Positions 7,669 through 40,631 of a stretch of DNA of 42,537 nucleotides are shown piece after piece; the stretch's first letter is position 1; every line of letters starts with the position of its first letter. The stretch comes from a virus. A program made the translations under genes and the position numbers. The stretch lies in UHGV virus genome UHGV-0420230, one strand, 5' to 3'. The notes beneath the pieces were generated by a model, which saw only the letters and a program-made list of their open reading frames with translations, ran no database searches and was not told where the DNA came from.

Positions 7669-7676
7669 GAATCTTC

Positions 7677-7847
7677 ATGTTTGTGAAACCTGTTAAAGGG
7701 CGGTCAGTGCCTGACCCTGCCCGCGGTGACCTTTTGCCCGCCGAAGGGCGAAATGTTGACGAGAACAACTACTGGCTGCGCCGTGAAGCAGCGGGTGATA
7801 TCCGGCGCGTGAATAAAAAGGTGAACACCGATGACGATAATCTTTAA
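7677..7847 (+). CDS. small protein, DUF2635-like (Mu-type tail region)
   Basis: 56-aa ORF not in the supplied track (MFVKPVKGRSVPDPARGDLLPAEGRNVDENNYWLRREAAGDIRRV), overlaps the sheath start by 17 nt; resembles small proteins found before sheath genes in Mu-like phages (from memory). Confidence 0.4.
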   Translation: MFVKPVKGRSVPDPARGDLLPAEGRNVDENNYWLRREAAGDIRRVNKKVNTDDDNL

Positions 7848-9327
7848 CACCATTCCGTCGAATACGCTGGTTCCGCTGTTTTATGCGGAAATGGATAACT
7901 CGGCGGCGAATACTGCACAGGACAGCGGGGCATCGTTGCTGATTGGTCACGCCAATAACGGTGCAGAGATTGTTGCCAACAGTCTGGTGCTGATGCCGTC
8001 GGCAGACTATGCACGCCAGATTTGTGGTGCGGGAAGTCAGCTGGCGCGTATGGTCGAGGCTTATCGCCAGACCGACCCGTTTGGCGAGCTGTATGTGATT
8101 GCCGTTCCGGAAGCCACAGGCGCGGCGGCAACGGTTACGCTGACGGTGACCGGAGCAGCAACCGAAACCGGCACGGTGAATGTGTATGTGGGACGTACCC
8201 GCGTGCAGGCACCGGTGACCAACGGCGATAACGTCACGACGATTGCCAGCAGTATCAAAGATGCCATCAATGCCGTTCCGGCCCTGCCGTTTACGGCCTC
8301 ATCTTCGGCAGGCGTGGTCACACTGACCGCGCGTCATAAGGGGCTTTGCGGGAATGAAATTCCTGTCAGCCTCAATTACTACGGCTTTGGTGGGGGCGAA
8401 GTGCTGCCAGCGGGTGTACAGATTGCCGTGGCGACGGGGACCGCCGGAACGGGCGCTCCGGTTCTCACCGGTGCGGTGGCTGCAATGGCGGATGAGCCGT
8501 TTGATTATATCGGTCTGCCGTTCAACGACACGGCCTCCGTTAACACGCTGGTGACCGAGATGAACGATACCAGCGGTCGCTGGAGCTATGCGCGTCAGCT
8601 GTATGGTCATGTGTATACGGCAAAGATCGGCACGCTGTCAGAACTGGTGACCGCAGGTGACCAGTTTAACCAGCAGCACATCACCCTGGCGGGGTACGAA
8701 AAAGAGACCCAGACGCCTGCCGACGAGCTGGCGGCAAGCCGTACCGCCCGCGCAGCGGTGTTTATCCGCAACGATCCGGCACGTCCCACGCAGACCGGTG
8801 AGCTGGTGGGTATGCTGCCTGCGCCGAAGGGGAAACGGTTCACGATGACCGAGCAGCAGACCCTGCTGTCTCATGGCGTGGCAACGGCGTATGTCGAAAG
8901 CGGGGTGCTGCGCATTCAACGTGATGTCACCACGTACAGGAAAAATGCTTACGGGGTTGCGGATAACAGCTACCTCGACAGCGAGACGCTGCATACCAGT
9001 GCGTATGTACTGCGCAAACTGAAATCCGTCATTACCAGTAAGTACGGGCGTCACAAGCTTGCCTGTGACGGTACCCGCTTTGGTCCCGGTCAGGCGATTG
9101 TCACCCCGGCGGTGATCAAAGGGGAACTGCTGGCAACCTACCGTCAGCTCGAGCGTGCGGGGATCGTGGAAAACTACGAACTGTTCAAGCAGTACCTGGT
9201 TGTGGAGCGTGATGCCAGCGATCCGAACCGCCTGAACACGCTGTTCCCGCCTGACTATGTTAACCAGTTGCGTGTCTTTGCCGTGGTTAACCAGTTCCGT
9301 CTTCAGTATTCAGAGGAGTCTGCATAA
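7831..9327 (+). CDS. contractile tail sheath protein
   Basis: 498 aa, sheath-like, followed directly by a tube protein. Confidence 0.85.
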   Translation: MTIIFNTIPSNTLVPLFYAEMDNSAANTAQDSGASLLIGHANNGAEIVANSLVLMPSADYARQICGAGSQLARMVEAYRQTDPFGELYVIAVPEATGAAATVTLTVTGAATETGTVNVYVGRTRVQAPVTNGDNVTTIASSIKDAINAVPALPFTASSSAGVVTLTARHKGLCGNEIPVSLNYYGFGGGEVLPAGVQIAVATGTAGTGAPVLTGAVAAMADEPFDYIGLPFNDTASVNTLVTEMNDTSGRWSYARQLYGHVYTAKIGTLSELVTAGDQFNQQHITLAGYEKETQTPADELAASRTARAAVFIRNDPARPTQTGELVGMLPAPKGKRFTMTEQQTLLSHGVATAYVESGVLRIQRDVTTYRKNAYGVADNSYLDSETLHTSAYVLRKLKSVITSKYGRHKLACDGTRFGPGQAIVTPAVIKGELLATYRQLERAGIVENYELFKQYLVVERDASDPNRLNTLFPPDYVNQLRVFAVVNQFRLQYSEESA

Positions 9328-19864: not shown

Positions 19865-19919
19865 TGCAGAGATTATGGCTAACTGGCATCATCCCCGGTT
19901 TTTACTCATGGGAATGCTC

Positions 19920-20477
19920 ATGCTTATTGGCTATGTCCGCGTATCAACAAATGACCAGAATACGGAATTGCAGCGTAATGCGCTGGAGTGTGCAGGATGT
20001 GAGCTGATTTTTGAAGATAAGATCAGCGGCACTAAGTCCGACCGACCGGGACCGAAAAAACTGCTCAGAACATTATCAGCAGGTGACACTCTGGTAGTCT
20101 GGAAACTGGACCGACTGGGGCGCAGTATGCGGCATCTTGTCGTGCTGGTGGAGGAGTTGCGCGAACGTGGCGTTAATTTTCGCAGCCTGACGGATGCTAT
20201 TGATACCAGCACACCAATGGGGCGCTTTTTCTTTCATGTGATGGGTGCCCTGGCTGAAATGGAGCGAGAGCTTATTGTCGAACGTACTAGGGCGGGCTTT
20301 GCCGCAGCACGACAAGAAGGGAGGAATGGTGGGCGAAAGCCAAAGCTGACAGTAGAACAATGGGAGCAGGCTGGCAGGTTGATTGAATCGGGAATATATC
20401 AGCAGCAAGTCGCACTGATTTATGATCTGGGTATTTCAACGGTGTATAAAAAATTCCCTGTAGCAAGTAAACCATAA
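19920..20477 (+). CDS. serine DNA invertase (Gin/Pin/Hin family)
   Basis: MLIGYVRVSTNDQNTELQRNAL... and C-terminal HTH closely resemble Gin/Pin; start taken at the MLIGY methionine rather than the track start 19875. Confidence 0.85.
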   Translation: MLIGYVRVSTNDQNTELQRNALECAGCELIFEDKISGTKSDRPGPKKLLRTLSAGDTLVVWKLDRLGRSMRHLVVLVEELRERGVNFRSLTDAIDTSTPMGRFFFHVMGALAEMERELIVERTRAGFAAARQEGRNGGRKPKLTVEQWEQAGRLIESGIYQQQVALIYDLGISTVYKKFPVASKP

Positions 20478-20503
20478 CCTTACGCCACATTGATGATCGC
20501 GGA

Positions 20504-21199
20504 TTATGCACTATTTTTAGGTCTTGTAACCCGAGGTGGGAGTTGTTTGGTTATATGTTCAAGTGATTTTTTGCCCAAGATAGTTCTTTGGACAAAACTT
20601 TCTATAGCTTCTAGCATTTGTTCGAACTCACTTTTATTCGGGCTCCAACTGCGATGTGCGGCGGCGTTTCCTGCATCAATTACAGAAGATATAACGCATG
20701 CCTCAGTGTCGCCTATGACTCCATCTTGTTTTAATTTTTCAACTTTTTCACCAAGCGGCAAACCGGGGTGAATTTGTAACAGTTCAGCAGTTCGATCAAA
20801 AATCGTCCGTAAACCGATGGACGAAAGAATGAAATGGTCAGAAGTATATGAAGAATACATTTCATTAAATATTTGAAAGAGCTGACGATCAACTGATTCA
20901 AGCTTGGATAACCATATCGGAGCTTGAAATGTTTCAGCGGCAGGATAGGTAGTGATCATATCTATAGGCGTTTCTACAAATTCACCATCACGATATTCGT
21001 GGGTAGTATGCTCACTGAAGTGTTCGTTGTGGTGATAGAAGACAGTATCACAGCCATTGCATTGGAGTAGGTGATGGTAATGGTACCCATAAACTGGATA
21101 TTGGGAATCCTCCCAGCTAGTGGTTAGCTTCCCATGCACAGTGCAGTTACGTAACCCACCGCATGTAGGGCAAAGAGCCTTGAGTATTTCCTTTTTCAT
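20504..21199 (-). CDS. zinc-ribbon protein with C-terminal DUF4145-like helical domain (candidate defence/accessory gene)
   Basis: 231 aa; N-terminal CPTCGG...C-x16-CNGC; C-terminal ...GNAAAH...EFEQMLEAIESFV resembles the DUF4145 signature (memory); AT-rich; sits where e14 carries mcrA. Confidence 0.65.
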   Translation of the reverse strand: MKKEILKALCPTCGGLRNCTVHGKLTTSWEDSQYPVYGYHYHHLLQCNGCDTVFYHHNEHFSEHTTHEYRDGEFVETPIDMITTYPAAETFQAPIWLSKLESVDRQLFQIFNEMYSSYTSDHFILSSIGLRTIFDRTAELLQIHPGLPLGEKVEKLKQDGVIGDTEACVISSVIDAGNAAAHRSWSPNKSEFEQMLEAIESFVQRTILGKKSLEHITKQLPPRVTRPKNSA

Positions 21200-21547
21200 A
21201 AAGTCTCTGATTCTATATGTAGGTTAAGACCACTATTAGCTATACGGACCTAATAATCAATCGTGTGCAGATACAAAAAAGCCCGTATAGCGGGATTTCA
21301 TGTCACTAAGGGCCGCGGCTACTTTGCGTATCTTTTTTGTCTTCTCACCGTCTGGCCGGTATTTTGCTGAGACTGCTTATTTCCAGTTTTTACTAGTGCT
21401 GTACTGGTACTGCCCAATCATGATTGGTGGGGGACGGAGTTGAAACCGCAGCCACGTCGTATGCAAGAACGCGCTGCGGTTGGCTGGTGAACTTTCGATA
21501 GTGCGAGTATTGAATGATTTCCAGCCGTTACAGATTTTACGTGTTTA

Positions 21548-21796
21548 TTAGTGAACAAACCACTCGTCAGCAGATTCCCAGGTATCTTTCAGAGTCTCCT
21601 GAACAAAAGTTTTTGCAGAATCCTTATCTGCGGTGCGTGTAACAGAAAGGCCATCATTGCTGGTGGCTTTTACTAACACCTCAACATCGTCATAACGCTT
21701 ACTGATGCGTCGGGTTAATTCTTCCTTTAACGCATCCACAGCACCGGTTGGCATTTTAGTCATTTTTTCTTTGGCTATGCAGATTTCAATACGCAT
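21548..21796 (-). CDS. dinI: DinI-like protein
   Basis: 82 aa, [11 protein letters not shown]...[11 protein letters not shown] strongly resembles E. coli DinI; GGAGG RBS. Confidence 0.85.
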
Positions 21797-21811
21797 AAAA
21801 GTCCCTCCATG

Positions 21812-21855
21812 CTGTGTTTGTATACAGTATTATTTTTAACTGTATGGATAAACAG
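21812..21855 (-). promoter_or_regulatory. two LexA (SOS) boxes overlapping the DinI-like promoter
   Basis: CTGT-N8-ACAG at 21812-21827 and 21840-21855; minus-strand TTGACA (plus 21857-21862), 17-bp spacer containing box 2, TAAAAA -10, box 1 over the start region. Confidence 0.7.
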
Positions 21856-21857
21856 TG

Positions 21858-22955
21858 TCAAGAGGTCTTATTTCTGCTCCTTTGGAGCTCTTCAAAACGA
21901 TTATGTAAAGATTTCGGATACAGTTCGGTATATACCTGCCATAGCACGTTTAATGAACGATGCCCTGTAACCTGGGCGACTTCCTCAATACTAAAACCAG
22001 CCTCAAATAAGCGACTTGCCCCTTCTCTACGCAAATCATGGTATCGCAGATCCTTAATACCTAATTTGCTTCTTACTCTCTGAAATCCCGCAGTAACAGA
22101 AGTGCTGTTATATGGAAAAATGAATTCCGATTTTTGGGGCTGTCGTTGGACGATATCCCAGGCTTCCCCAAGCAAGGCTACTTTCATGTGGTTGCCTTCC
22201 TTTTTGCGTGGATCTTTCCTGTCTCTTACGAGTATAGATTTTTGTTCCTGGTCGAGATCTTCCCATCGTAACCGGCATACTTCTCCGATTCGCATACAGG
22301 ACCATACAGAAAATTTGAGGATATCAACGAACGGAATTTTTGAGCATTTATGAGTAGATCGTTGTTGAAGGCCTGCAATGAGCATGTCCAGTTCATCAGA
22401 TGCTGGTCTACGATTACGACGGTTTGATTTACCAATCAAACCAAGTTTAAGTAGATATGGGCGAGCGCTTTTCGCCGGGTTTGATGTGTAATTAATTCCG
22501 TATACAGGTTTGGCCGCATCCAGAACACTGCCAAGATAACTAACATCGTGGCTGACTGTTGCTGGACCTGCACCAGCGTTGTTTCTTAGCCTGCAATGTT
22601 CAATTACGTCATTTTCTGTCAGTTCAGATAGTTTGATCGCGGAGATGTCACTATCCATAAGCAGTTCCAGCACATATCTTTTAGTACGGCCTGCTTTACC
22701 TCCGGCATTTGGGTCATTTAAATATTTGTGTAGTAAGTCACGGACTGTAAGTCCGTCAACTGCATTTGATGATGGAATGCCATATAGATCTAATTCCATC
22801 ACTTTCTGTGTGCCCCATGTTTTGGCATGAGCATGTTTAGGGAATGTTTTGCTTTCCCTGTAAGTGATAACACCTTTTTCTTTGATAATCACATTACAGC
22901 GATAGCGTGGTGTGCCATCGGATTTTAGTCGTTTCTCTATGTTATAGTACGCCAT
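21858..22955 (-). CDS. int: tyrosine integrase
   Basis: 365 aa; C-terminal catalytic region with R, H and Y (...YHDLRREGASRL...GHRSLNVLWQVYTEL); GAGGT RBS. Confidence 0.85.
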   Translation of the reverse strand: MAYYNIEKRLKSDGTPRYRCNVIIKEKGVITYRESKTFPKHAHAKTWGTQKVMELDLYGIPSSNAVDGLTVRDLLHKYLNDPNAGGKAGRTKRYVLELLMDSDISAIKLSELTENDVIEHCRLRNNAGAGPATVSHDVSYLGSVLDAAKPVYGINYTSNPAKSARPYLLKLGLIGKSNRRNRRPASDELDMLIAGLQQRSTHKCSKIPFVDILKFSVWSCMRIGEVCRLRWEDLDQEQKSILVRDRKDPRKKEGNHMKVALLGEAWDIVQRQPQKSEFIFPYNSTSVTAGFQRVRSKLGIKDLRYHDLRREGASRLFEAGFSIEEVAQVTGHRSLNVLWQVYTELYPKSLHNRFEELQRSRNKTS

Positions 22956-23401: not shown

Positions 23402-23974
23402 ATGTTTTGCGAAGAAAAAGTAGCTCAAATGGCTGCATACCTACTTCTTAAGCGAGGTGGGCGCATGGCATATCTGAAATTGATGAAGTTGCTCTATCTG
23501 TCTAACCGCCAGTCGATTTTGAAGCATGGCAGGATGATCGGCGAAGATAGCCTTTACTCTATGAAATTTGGACCAGTCATGTCGAATACGCTGAACTTGA
23601 TTCGCGGTAAGGCTGAAGGCATTGGTGACTACTGGTACAACTTGATAGAGACGAACGGGCATAATGTATCGTTGCGTTCAGATCCGAGGGAAATGGATGC
23701 AGACGAGGTCTTTGATGAATTGAGTCGTGCAGATATCCGGATTTTAGATGAAATCTATTCTCGGTATGGGCATATGAACCGATTTGATCTCGCAAATATG
23801 ACGCATTTAGAAAGCGTTTGTCCAGAGTGGCACGATCCTGGCAATTCTCGTAAGCCTATAGACCTGAAAGAAATGCTGATCAGTGAGGGTAAAAGCGAGG
23901 ATGAGGCTAATCGCATAATTGGCAAAATGGAAGAATCTCAGAAACTTAAGGAATTTTCTTTGCAATTATCATGA
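23402..23974 (+). CDS. Panacea (DUF4065)-like domain protein, candidate antitoxin
   Basis: 190 aa; ...YLKLMKLLYLSNRQSILKHGRMIGEDSLYSMKFGPVMSNTLNLI fits the Panacea pattern (LKLQKLLYY...GPV) from memory; GAGG RBS; AT-rich. Confidence 0.6.
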   Translation: MFCEEKVAQMAAYLLLKRGGRMAYLKLMKLLYLSNRQSILKHGRMIGEDSLYSMKFGPVMSNTLNLIRGKAEGIGDYWYNLIETNGHNVSLRSDPREMDADEVFDELSRADIRILDEIYSRYGHMNRFDLANMTHLESVCPEWHDPGNSRKPIDLKEMLISEGKSEDEANRIIGKMEESQKLKEFSLQLS

Positions 23975-24390
23975 CGGATTATCAGCCATACAGGAAAGGA
24001 ACTGTGCTTGCCCCAACTGGGCCATGCAATCATCTTCATGTGATTTGTAATGATCCTGTTTATTACCCCGTTAACGATTGTTATTGTGTTTTAGTTGTTA
24101 ATATTTCTAGTATCAAGGATGGTGTCCCCCACGATCCGTCTTGCGTCTTGAATTCTGGTGATCATCGCTTTATCAAGCATCCAAGTTATGTTGTTTACGC
24201 TGAAGCTATAATTTGGCGAGTGGATAACATGGTTAGAAAGCAGCGATCGGGTGAGATTTCTGTTCATGATGATATGCCAGAAGCTACATTCAATAGAATT
24301 CTGGACGGTTTTGATATCTCTGATGAAGTTACGCCAAAGAACCTTAAATTTAAAAATAAATATTGCGTATCATCTATTGATGATGAGTAA
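23971..24390 (+). CDS. hypothetical protein, candidate toxin/effector partner
   Basis: 139 aa; start overlaps the upstream stop (ATGA at 23971-23974), implying translational coupling; no recognised family. Confidence 0.55.
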   Translation: MTDYQPYRKGTVLAPTGPCNHLHVICNDPVYYPVNDCYCVLVVNISSIKDGVPHDPSCVLNSGDHRFIKHPSYVVYAEAIIWRVDNMVRKQRSGEISVHDDMPEATFNRILDGFDISDEVTPKNLKFKNKYCVSSIDDE

Positions 24391-24650: not shown

Positions 24651-24932
24651 TTAGTGATGTTCTTTGCCCTTCTGTTTGCTTGTTCTGACCTGTTCCCACT
24701 CGATACGTCCTTCTTCTCGTCTTTTGTCTATGTATTCCGCAAGATCCTGAATATTGATGCAACGTTTTGCTTTTTGTGATGTGCCGATGCGATATGTTGG
24801 AACGGGCAACTTACAAGCGTTTGCTTTTGCTTCTGCCGTGGCTGGACTCATGCCAAAGTACTTTTGGCTAACTGCTGAGAGTTCAATGTTAGGGGTATTG
24901 AATTCAGCCATCAGTAAAAACAAGGTGTTCAT
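24651..24932 (-). CDS. PrtN-family / excisionase-like DNA-binding protein
   Basis: MNTLFLLMAEFNTPNIEL...INIQDLAEYIDKRREE resembles the PrtN/Xis-like family; last gene of the leftward operon. Confidence 0.65.
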   Translation of the reverse strand: MNTLFLLMAEFNTPNIELSAVSQKYFGMSPATAEAKANACKLPVPTYRIGTSQKAKRCINIQDLAEYIDKRREEGRIEWEQVRTSKQKGKEHH

Positions 24933-24968
24933 AATTTTCTCCATCAAAACCGGCTGCACCCGGGAAAA

Positions 24969-39578: not shown

Positions 39579-40631
39579 ATGAAAAATACTGTAAAAATAA
39601 ACAGTGTTGATTTAATCAACGCTGATTGCCTGCATTTTATTCAGTCCCTGCCTGATGATTCCATTGACCTGATTGTTACCGATCCGCCTTACTTCAAGGT
39701 GAAACCTAACGGTTGGGACAATCAGTGGAAAGGGGATGAAGATTACCTTAAGTGGCTGGACCACTGTCTGGCCCAGTTCTGGCGGGTGTTGAAACCTGCC
39801 GGAAGCCTTTACCTGTTCTGTGGGCATCGCCTAGCATCTGATATTGAGATCATGATGCGTGAACGTTTCAACGTGCTTAACCATATCATCTGGGCGAAGC
39901 CGTCCGGACGTTGGAATGGGTGTAATAAAGAAAGTCTGCGCGCATATTTTCCTGCCACAGAGCGCGTTCTGTTTGCTGAACATTACCAGGGGCCATATCG
40001 CGGCAAAAGTGACGGCTATGCGGCAAAAGAAAGGGAACTCAAACAGCACATAATGGCACCGCTGATATCGTATTTCAGGGATGCTCGTGCCGAACTGGGT
40101 ATAACGGCAAAACAAATTGCCGAAGCCACAGGTAAGAAAAATATGGTTTCCCACTGGTTTGGTGCCAGTCAGTGGCAGTTGCCGAATGAGGCTGACTATC
40201 GGAAGTTACAGGCACTGTTTTCCCGTATAGCGGCAGAGAAGTTTCAGGAACAACAACTGGAACAACCACACCACCAGCTGGTGGCATCTTATGATTCACT
40301 GAATCGTAAATATTCTGAATTGCTGGATGAGTTTAAATCTCTCCGGCGCTATTTCTCCGTATCAGTCTCCGTGCCTTATACCGATGTCTGGATGCATAAA
40401 CCCGTTCAGTTCTACCCGGGGAAACATCCGTGTGAGAAACCGGCGGATATGCTCAGGCAAATAATCAATGCCAGTAGTCGACCAGGTGATCTGGTTGCTG
40501 ATTTTTTTATGGGATCCGGTTCCACAATAAAAGCAGCAATGGCGCTGGGGCGTCGGGCCTTAGGTGTTGAGCTTGAGTCAGAGCGGTTTAATCAGACAGT
40601 GAAAGAGATAAACGAGCTGGTGGGGAAATAA
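39579..40631 (+). CDS. DNA methyltransferase (N6/N4 type, DPPY motif), late-expressed orphan
   Basis: IVTDPPYF motif near the N-terminus and C-terminal AdoMet-binding region (DFFMGSGST); no adjacent restriction gene. Confidence 0.8.
   Translation: MKNTVKINSVDLINADCLHFIQSLPDDSIDLIVTDPPYFKVKPNGWDNQWKGDEDYLKWLDHCLAQFWRVLKPAGSLYLFCGHRLASDIEIMMRERFNVLNHIIWAKPSGRWNGCNKESLRAYFPATERVLFAEHYQGPYRGKSDGYAAKERELKQHIMAPLISYFRDARAELGITAKQIAEATGKKNMVSHWFGASQWQLPNEADYRKLQALFSRIAAEKFQEQQLEQPHHQLVASYDSLNRKYSELLDEFKSLRRYFSVSVSVPYTDVWMHKPVQFYPGKHPCEKPADMLRQIINASSRPGDLVADFFMGSGSTIKAAMALGRRALGVELESERFNQTVKEINELVGK

Follow-up and report, generated by a model that had tools for sequence, protein, structure and literature searches.

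The DNA analyzed here is the 42,537-nucleotide virus genome UHGV-0420230, referred to as a whole as the window. It is an SfI/II/IV- and e14-like myovirus prophage, with a first 19 kb that is 97–98.5% identical to Escherichia phage vB_EcoM-720R4 and Shigella phages SfIV, SfII, and SfI, and with tail-fiber, invertase, and YmfQ genes in the e14-type arrangement. Identical DNA is present as a prophage in E. coli strain elppa4, where the integrase adjoins dusA. A preliminary description had placed a single minus-strand gene for a 231-aa product between the invertase and a DinI-like gene, and the open reading frame and its flanks match that account. The gene product appears in RefSeq as WP_001514810.1, "DUF4145 domain-containing protein". 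The features of the locus, in coordinates of the window, are as follows.

19875–20477, plus strand: Pin/Gin-type tail-fiber invertase, left border of the slot (Pfam Resolvase and HTH_7)
20504–21199, minus strand: coding sequence of the zinc-ribbon and DUF4145/HEPN protein, 231 aa, ATG start (list of open reading frames)
20543–20911, minus strand: C-terminal helical HEPN (DUF4145) domain, residues 97–219, putative RNase effector
20645–20677, minus strand: signature motif D175-A-G-N-A-A-A-H182-R183-S-W185 (sequence and column counts)
20912–20944, minus strand: inter-domain linker, residues 86–96 (A1 alignment; neither helix nor strand in the model)
20945–21199, minus strand: N-terminal beta-rich zinc-ribbon domain, residues 1–85, putative sensor (AF2 model)
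21200–21438, minus strand: cassette-specific upstream DNA, promoter region with hairpin and T-run (sequence; hairpin also found in the scan)
21439–21547, minus strand: conserved 3' element of the dinI module, a GC-rich hairpin of 109 bp, 96.8% identical in the empty-slot prophage
21548–22955, minus strand: dinI-like gene and dusA-targeting tyrosine integrase, right border of the slot (Pfam)
21548–21796, minus strand: DinI-family gene within this border (Pfam)
21858–22955, minus strand: tyrosine integrase within this border (Pfam), of a type that is integrated next to dusA in related genomes

GC content is 0.40–0.45 around the gene versus 0.50–0.61 in the structural genes. The AT-rich island of the preliminary description therefore exists as a region of low GC but is not confined to the gene, because low GC extends through dinI, int, and beyond.

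The cargo slot and the limits of the cassette

Prophages differ in the DNA that they carry at this position, beside the same dinI-int module or after the e14 invertase.

TUM9754, the closest dusA prophage: empty; invertase, 143 bp, then dinI
RL465: nothing, with a truncated invertase, beside the same dinI-int module
N39 (locus L024, 2495–3163): class I SAM-dependent methyltransferase, beside dinI-int-dusA
C-SRM-3 (locus L025, 1379–3278): reverse transcriptase and SLATT protein, beside dinI-int-dusA
EHEC-type lambdoid prophages: NleG-like, EspW, and EspM2 (T3SS) effectors
e14: mcrA, directly after pinE
SfIV: IS and gtrIV-gtrB-gtrA

The same core genes thus flank unrelated cargo that includes known defense genes, as is characteristic of a prophage cargo hotspot, and the slot is a swap-in position that has repeatedly held defense or lysogenic-conversion genes. 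Two expectations of the preliminary description, that the slot would vary among related prophages and that the equivalent position in e14 would hold mcrA, agree with these contents. P2-like prophages were considered as further instances of the same slot and rejected, as the part in common is only the 5' part of the invertase.

A 1,161-bp stretch containing the gene is present at 99.7–100% identity in 34 of 5,426 complete E. coli genomes, and its flanks are found in about 3,000 genomes. In a tblastn search, none of 50,697 deposited phage genomes yielded a copy, a result that counts against a role in defense. E. coli SX12 carries the region twice, on the chromosome (NZ_CP142783.1) and on a separate 55.6-kb record (NZ_CP142787.1) that may be an excised or replicating form of the phage or an artefact of assembly.

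The gap between the gene and dinI (21200–21547) measures 348 bp, close to the 350 bp of upstream non-coding DNA reported initially, but its distal 109 bp is an element of the dinI module. Alignment to the empty-slot prophage of TUM9754 picks up again only at 21439, and the inserted unit is therefore approximately 20478–21438; of the upstream gap only 21200–21438 moves together with the gene. The dinI 3' element is present where the gene is absent and belongs to its dinI neighbor rather than to the cassette. This element of ∼110 bp also occurs alone, with no annotated gene, at other prophage ends in many E. coli genomes, for example beside ybhB/bioA in strain w264. An Rfam search with it returned only a chance-level match to CssrB (E = 0.41).

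Within the cassette-specific upstream DNA, a hairpin followed by a T-run (CCCGCTATACGGG CTTTTTTG, about 21274–21294) lies 75 nt upstream of the ATG and could insulate the gene from read-through out of the SOS-controlled dinI. A weak sigma-70-like promoter, judged by eye, follows the hairpin and T-run, and a LexA-box pattern search finds no box belonging to the gene itself. As far as the sequence can indicate, this layout is the one commonly seen in morons that are expressed autonomously. The gene is accordingly regarded here as "moron" cargo, a self-contained cassette that brings its upstream region along and occupies a lysogenic-conversion slot. A conserved upstream RNA or small-ORF partner was considered and rejected: an Rfam scan of the upstream region gives no credible match, its folding is unremarkable (z = −1.2), homologues of 70% identity do not share this DNA, including the hairpin and T-run, in their cassettes, and upstream of homologous cassettes no recurring small ORF is seen.

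Several other observations concern the surrounding DNA. A 47-residue hydrophobic ORF (MSLRAAATLRIFFVFSPSGRYFAETAYFQFLLVLYWYCPIMIGGGRS; 21300–21443, plus strand), divergent from the gene, takes up the upstream DNA specific to the cassette; RefSeq does not annotate it, and homologous cassettes lack an equivalent ORF in their upstream DNA. Perfect matches to the LexA-box pattern CTGT-N8-ACAG lie at 21812–21827 and 21840–21855, in the interval separating the stop of the integrase gene from the start of the dinI-like gene; the window has three such matches, the third at 39589–39604, versus 0.6 expected. Beyond the integrase and the presumed attP, at 23402–24390 on the plus strand, a gene for a SocA/Panacea-domain protein of 190 aa (Pfam E = 2e-19) is overlapped by 4 bp by a 139-aa ORF lacking a Pfam match. 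These two are a candidate Panacea antitoxin and toxin pair, which would give the prophage a second conflict module at its opposite end. Among the early genes, 24651–24959 on the minus strand encodes a PrtN-like protein of the "pyocin activator" family (Pfam E = 4e-23).

Architecture and conserved residues of the zinc-ribbon-HEPN protein

The 231-residue protein consists of an N-terminal zinc ribbon and a C-terminal HEPN domain. AF2 models have pLDDT values of 95.9 (with the A1 alignment) and 95.5, where A1 denotes an alignment of 72 diverse homologues including the protein itself. Both sequence motifs that first drew attention to the gene are found, the paired CxxC motifs as C10/C13 and C47/C50 and GNAAAH as residues 177–182. 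The N-terminal domain, which carries C10-x2-C13 and C47-x2-C50, has unusually long beta-hairpins in the AF2 model, and Foldseek finds no structural match for it in the PDB (best E = 0.14). An 11-residue linker that keeps P86, P94, and W96 leads into the C-terminal domain, which has the all-alpha fold of the HEPN superfamily. Pfam DUF4145 (PF13643; HEPN clan CL0291) matches residues 115–199 with a score of 39 bits, above the gathering score of 23.1 (E = 8.8e-10), spanning profile positions 4–87 of 88. The proposed DUF4145 similarity is thereby substantiated, but the PADLOC defense models, searched in the same connection, give no match. PHROG 1305 matches over the full length (E = 5e-43); its label, "DNA binding protein", is an annotation only and counts against reading the protein as a defense RNase. 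A search of NCBIfam with the protein returned nothing.

Conservation in A1 identifies the residues under strongest constraint. C10, C47, R131, K152, A180, H182, W185, and P221 are invariant across the 72 sequences, and C13, C50, P86, P94, W96, D135, A176, G177, R183, and E200 are conserved in at least 90% (R183 in 96%). The family signature in these diverse members is [DE]-A-G-[NS]-A-A-A-H-R-[GS]-W. The Rx4–6H catalytic motif of the HEPN superfamily is absent; residues 160–181, the 22 that precede H182, include no Arg or Lys, and position 174 is V, T, I, or A in 72 of 72 sequences. Because the canonical arginine is replaced in every sequence, the HEPN domain could be non-catalytic. Alternatively, the absence of an arginine eight residues before the histidine makes R131, K152, and R183, the last beside H182, candidate catalytic residues.

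The family is large: an exhaustive phmmer search of 1.84 billion representatives places 1,513 clusters (50% identity) at E ≤ 1e-3, of which 546 reach E ≤ 1e-10. Of the 150 best matches, nearly all align end to end, and most are 200–270 aa long. Mean pairwise identity across the family is 28% in the zinc-ribbon half versus 38% in the HEPN half, and members at or below 47% identity show 27–37% in the zinc ribbon versus 44–55% in HEPN. Among relatives of 63–84% identity the zinc ribbon shows no greater variability than HEPN, which counts against the defense reading proposed below. Four longer members of about 400–500 aa (P0065, P0105, P0119, and P0146) have an extra N-terminal CxxC...CxxC ribbon (weakly Lar-like in Pfam) and a domain of ∼150 aa before the usual unit.

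Homologues lie in mobile DNA. Citrobacter and Enterobacter proteins of ∼70% identity are encoded at the very ends of prophages of P2-, lambda-, and P22-like types, with S24/UmuD-like, umuC, dinI, gtr, and tail-fiber genes as neighbors. The cassette is itself mobile: a 1.1-kb Enterobacter version, consisting of ∼330 bp upstream, the gene, and ∼100 bp downstream, is 96–99% identical in three otherwise unrelated prophages with P2-, lambda-, and P22-like tails. All three copies (loci L009, L010, and L011, about 7674–8800) lie downstream of livKHMGF genes. Upstream of the Citrobacter and Enterobacter copies there are tRNA-like translations, in which ARAGORN finds no tRNA; they are not complete tRNAs, but might be remnants of att sites. 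A 40%-identical Burkholderia protein is encoded in an island with Gabija-like genes, a PRTase and reverse-transcriptase pair, and a kinase. Genes in the vicinity of more distant members encode integrases and resolvases, PIN and SymE toxins, an AAA+/S8 protease pair, and an SMC-like ATPase accompanied by a PLD nuclease. Full-length members also occur on Yersinia plasmids, a 41% homologue on pMT1 of Y. pestis Nepal516 (locus L027, 6001–6723) and a 46% homologue on MOBF conjugative plasmids of Y. enterocolitica (locus L028, 5992–6720). On pMT1 the copy is surrounded by IS elements, and the phospholipase D (ymt) gene is a few kb away. The prophage ends and the one defense island support the earlier suggestion of a defense or exclusion gene. 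No partner gene is conserved in the neighborhoods of the homologues, suggesting a stand-alone, single-gene system.

Relation to RAZR and other defense proteins

The preliminary description spoke of an unknown mechanism, a statement now out of date given that a protein of the same architecture, RAZR (ring-activated zinc-finger RNase), has been characterized as a ring-activated HEPN RNase (PMC13017515). RAZR is identical to PD-T7-4, E. coli UMB1727 RRL46918.1 (Vassallo 2022, PMC9519451; Zhang 2026, PMC13017515), and its structures are solved (PDB 9Y9C/9Y6U; PMC13017515). The protein has 219 aa, with a Cys4 zinc ribbon at 9–59 and DUF4145/HEPN at 87–175 (PMC13017515; PMC9519451 supplement), and requires R146 and H154 (PMC13017515). 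It forms a 24-mer around phage rings, namely the Erf-like Gp77 of SECphi27 and the T7 portal, and experiments show that the assembled enzyme cuts RNA nonspecifically, leading to abortive infection (PMC13017515). Variation in RAZR is greatest in the zinc-finger domain, which determines specificity (PMC13017515).

Like RAZR, the protein described here (231 vs 219 aa) joins an N-terminal Cys4 zinc ribbon to a C-terminal DUF4145 domain in one polypeptide, is a single-gene system with a short conserved linker, and keeps a conserved HEPN histidine, H182 corresponding to RAZR H154 when mapped through the DUF4145 coordinates (115–199 vs 87–175). Both are tied to mobile elements and integrases, and in both the zinc-ribbon half is the more variable, here at long range. 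Unlike RAZR, however, the stretch N-terminal to DUF4145 is ∼28 residues longer, and the N-terminal domain has long beta-hairpins in the model and no match in the PDB. In place of the R146/H154 pair, the arginine equivalent is absent family-wide whereas R131, K152, and R183 are kept; as the eighth position ahead of the histidine is not an arginine, the active site must be built differently than in RAZR.

Sequence searches do not connect the two proteins directly. The PADLOC PD-T7-4 model (PDLC04109) misses the 231-aa protein at E ≤ 1, and a PADLOC scan of the 72 A1 sequences gives no match at E ≤ 0.01. The PD-T7-4 model catches two of 119 further relatives, leaving 189 of 191 scanned sequences without any match. 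One of the matching members, P0186, is hit at E = 2.8e-5 over its C-terminal 56 residues only, the histidine included, and may provide a weak transitive link between the family and RAZR. One scanned relative also matches the PADLOC reverse-transcriptase models RT_UG29 and RTasDnaG-like. Neither the protein nor the 72-sequence A1 profile reaches RAZR in a PDB sequence search at E ≤ 10, nor does a search from P0186 find it, although the sequence set contains 9Y9C and 9Y6U, as a Gp77 query confirmed; similarity to the solved RAZR chain was thus not found. At the level of detectable similarity, then, the protein has a RAZR-like layout but is not demonstrably a member of the RAZR family, and it appears to represent a separate one.

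Other known systems share single features with it. DS-38 (DefensePredictor; WP_001313577.1), a validated E. coli defense protein, likewise combines HEPN and zinc fingers, but in the reverse order, with a canonical HEPN (RNRVVH) at the N-terminus and a multi-zinc-finger array at the C-terminus; identity with this unrelated 366-aa protein was rejected. PD-T7-3, the BREX-associated BxaP, which behaves like an abortive-infection protein, and the anti-plasmid Ishtar1 are validated defense proteins with a DUF4145 HEPN as presumed effector, but there the domain is N-terminal and fused to others (HEAT-like, beta/alpha), with no zinc ribbon. McrA of e14 is a defense gene product from the same post-invertase slot of a prophage with a related tail module, but it is an HNH endonuclease against modified DNA with no relation in sequence or fold. 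HepT toxins (HEPN-MNT) differ in having the canonical Rx4HxY motif and in being paired with a cognate MNT antitoxin; the present system has neither.

Proposed function and alternatives

We infer that the gene serves in defense, and the evidence leans modestly toward a trigger-activated, stand-alone HEPN effector that would bring about superinfection exclusion by abortive infection. By analogy with RAZR/PD-T7-4, from which RNase activity, trigger-dependent activation, and an abortive outcome are all extrapolated, the variable N-terminal Cys4 zinc-ribbon beta-domain would detect a sign of infection, probably an assembly of phage proteins. Detection would drive or re-shape oligomerization, and through it the DUF4145/HEPN domains at the C-terminus would become arranged for activity; these would then cut cellular and phage RNA, translation would stop, and the lysogen would be shielded from other phages through abortive infection. 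A more particular proposal is possible but rather doubtful, namely that the proteins constitute a separate, widespread zinc-ribbon-HEPN immune family in which the sensor would have its own cue or geometry and the active site would be a non-canonical one built from H182-R183 and R131/K152, or in which HEPN would otherwise signal by a non-RNase route.

The gene could instead be directed against other mobile elements, in the manner of the anti-plasmid Ishtar, or it could be an addiction or toxin gene that stabilizes the prophage. DUF4145 proteins are able to block conjugative plasmids (Ishtar), members of the family reside on Yersinia pestis pMT1 and conjugative Y. enterocolitica plasmids, and SymE or PIN toxins adjoin some relatives. 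Such a function nevertheless seems unlikely, as Ishtar has the reversed domain order, with HEPN at the N-terminus and a different C-terminal domain, no conserved antitoxin-like neighbor or upstream RNA was found, and most enterobacterial copies occupy prophage cargo positions typical of superinfection exclusion. The missing canonical arginine, which leaves room for a non-catalytic or differently catalytic HEPN, bears on another explanation, that the protein is a HEPN-fold binder of nucleic acid or nucleotides without catalysis and regulates, for example, prophage or host expression. This is distinctly improbable: the PHROG label amounts to annotation, the invariant H182 with adjacent R183 and the invariant R131 and K152 have the appearance of a maintained active site, neither a helix-turn-helix nor operator-like repeats are seen, and the swap-in slot and the Gabija neighborhood are a better fit for defense.

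The position of the gene in a phage genome near the SOS-controlled dinI, together with the conceivable shut-off of host translation by HEPN RNases, could also speak for a part in the lytic program of the phage itself, such as degradation of host RNA after induction, with no bearing on immunity. The gene is dispensable, however, because it is missing from the closest relatives and from SfI/II/IV phages with 97% identical structural genes; it also lacks its own LexA box, is separated from dinI by two hairpins, and occurs as the same cassette in unrelated phage types, so that a lytic role is very unlikely. Hardly any weight can be given to a decaying or functionless hitch-hiker, an interpretation to which the rarity of the gene in E. 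coli (34 of 5,426 genomes) would be congenial; the ORF is intact and 99.7–100% identical across unrelated strains, specific residues are strongly conserved family-wide, and the fold is predicted with very high confidence.

For the reading as a trigger-activated HEPN effector, RAZR provides the precedent of phage ring assemblies whose geometry is sensed by a small zinc-finger-HEPN protein, and since RAZR is already published the zinc-ribbon-HEPN layout as such will not surprise specialists. The present family differs from RAZR in its sensor domain, for which there is no structural match, and in its altered active site, and defense finders of the PADLOC type currently overlook it. The junction from the tail-fiber and invertase genes to dinI-int in SfI/II/IV- and e14-like prophages is a usable hotspot in which to look for new cargo. 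If the family is defensive, it would extend the theme of a zinc-binding sensor joined to a HEPN effector, would offer a second system for asking what zinc-binding sensors recognize, and would fill an annotation gap for prophage cargo slots and for plasmid copies such as that on Y. pestis pMT1.
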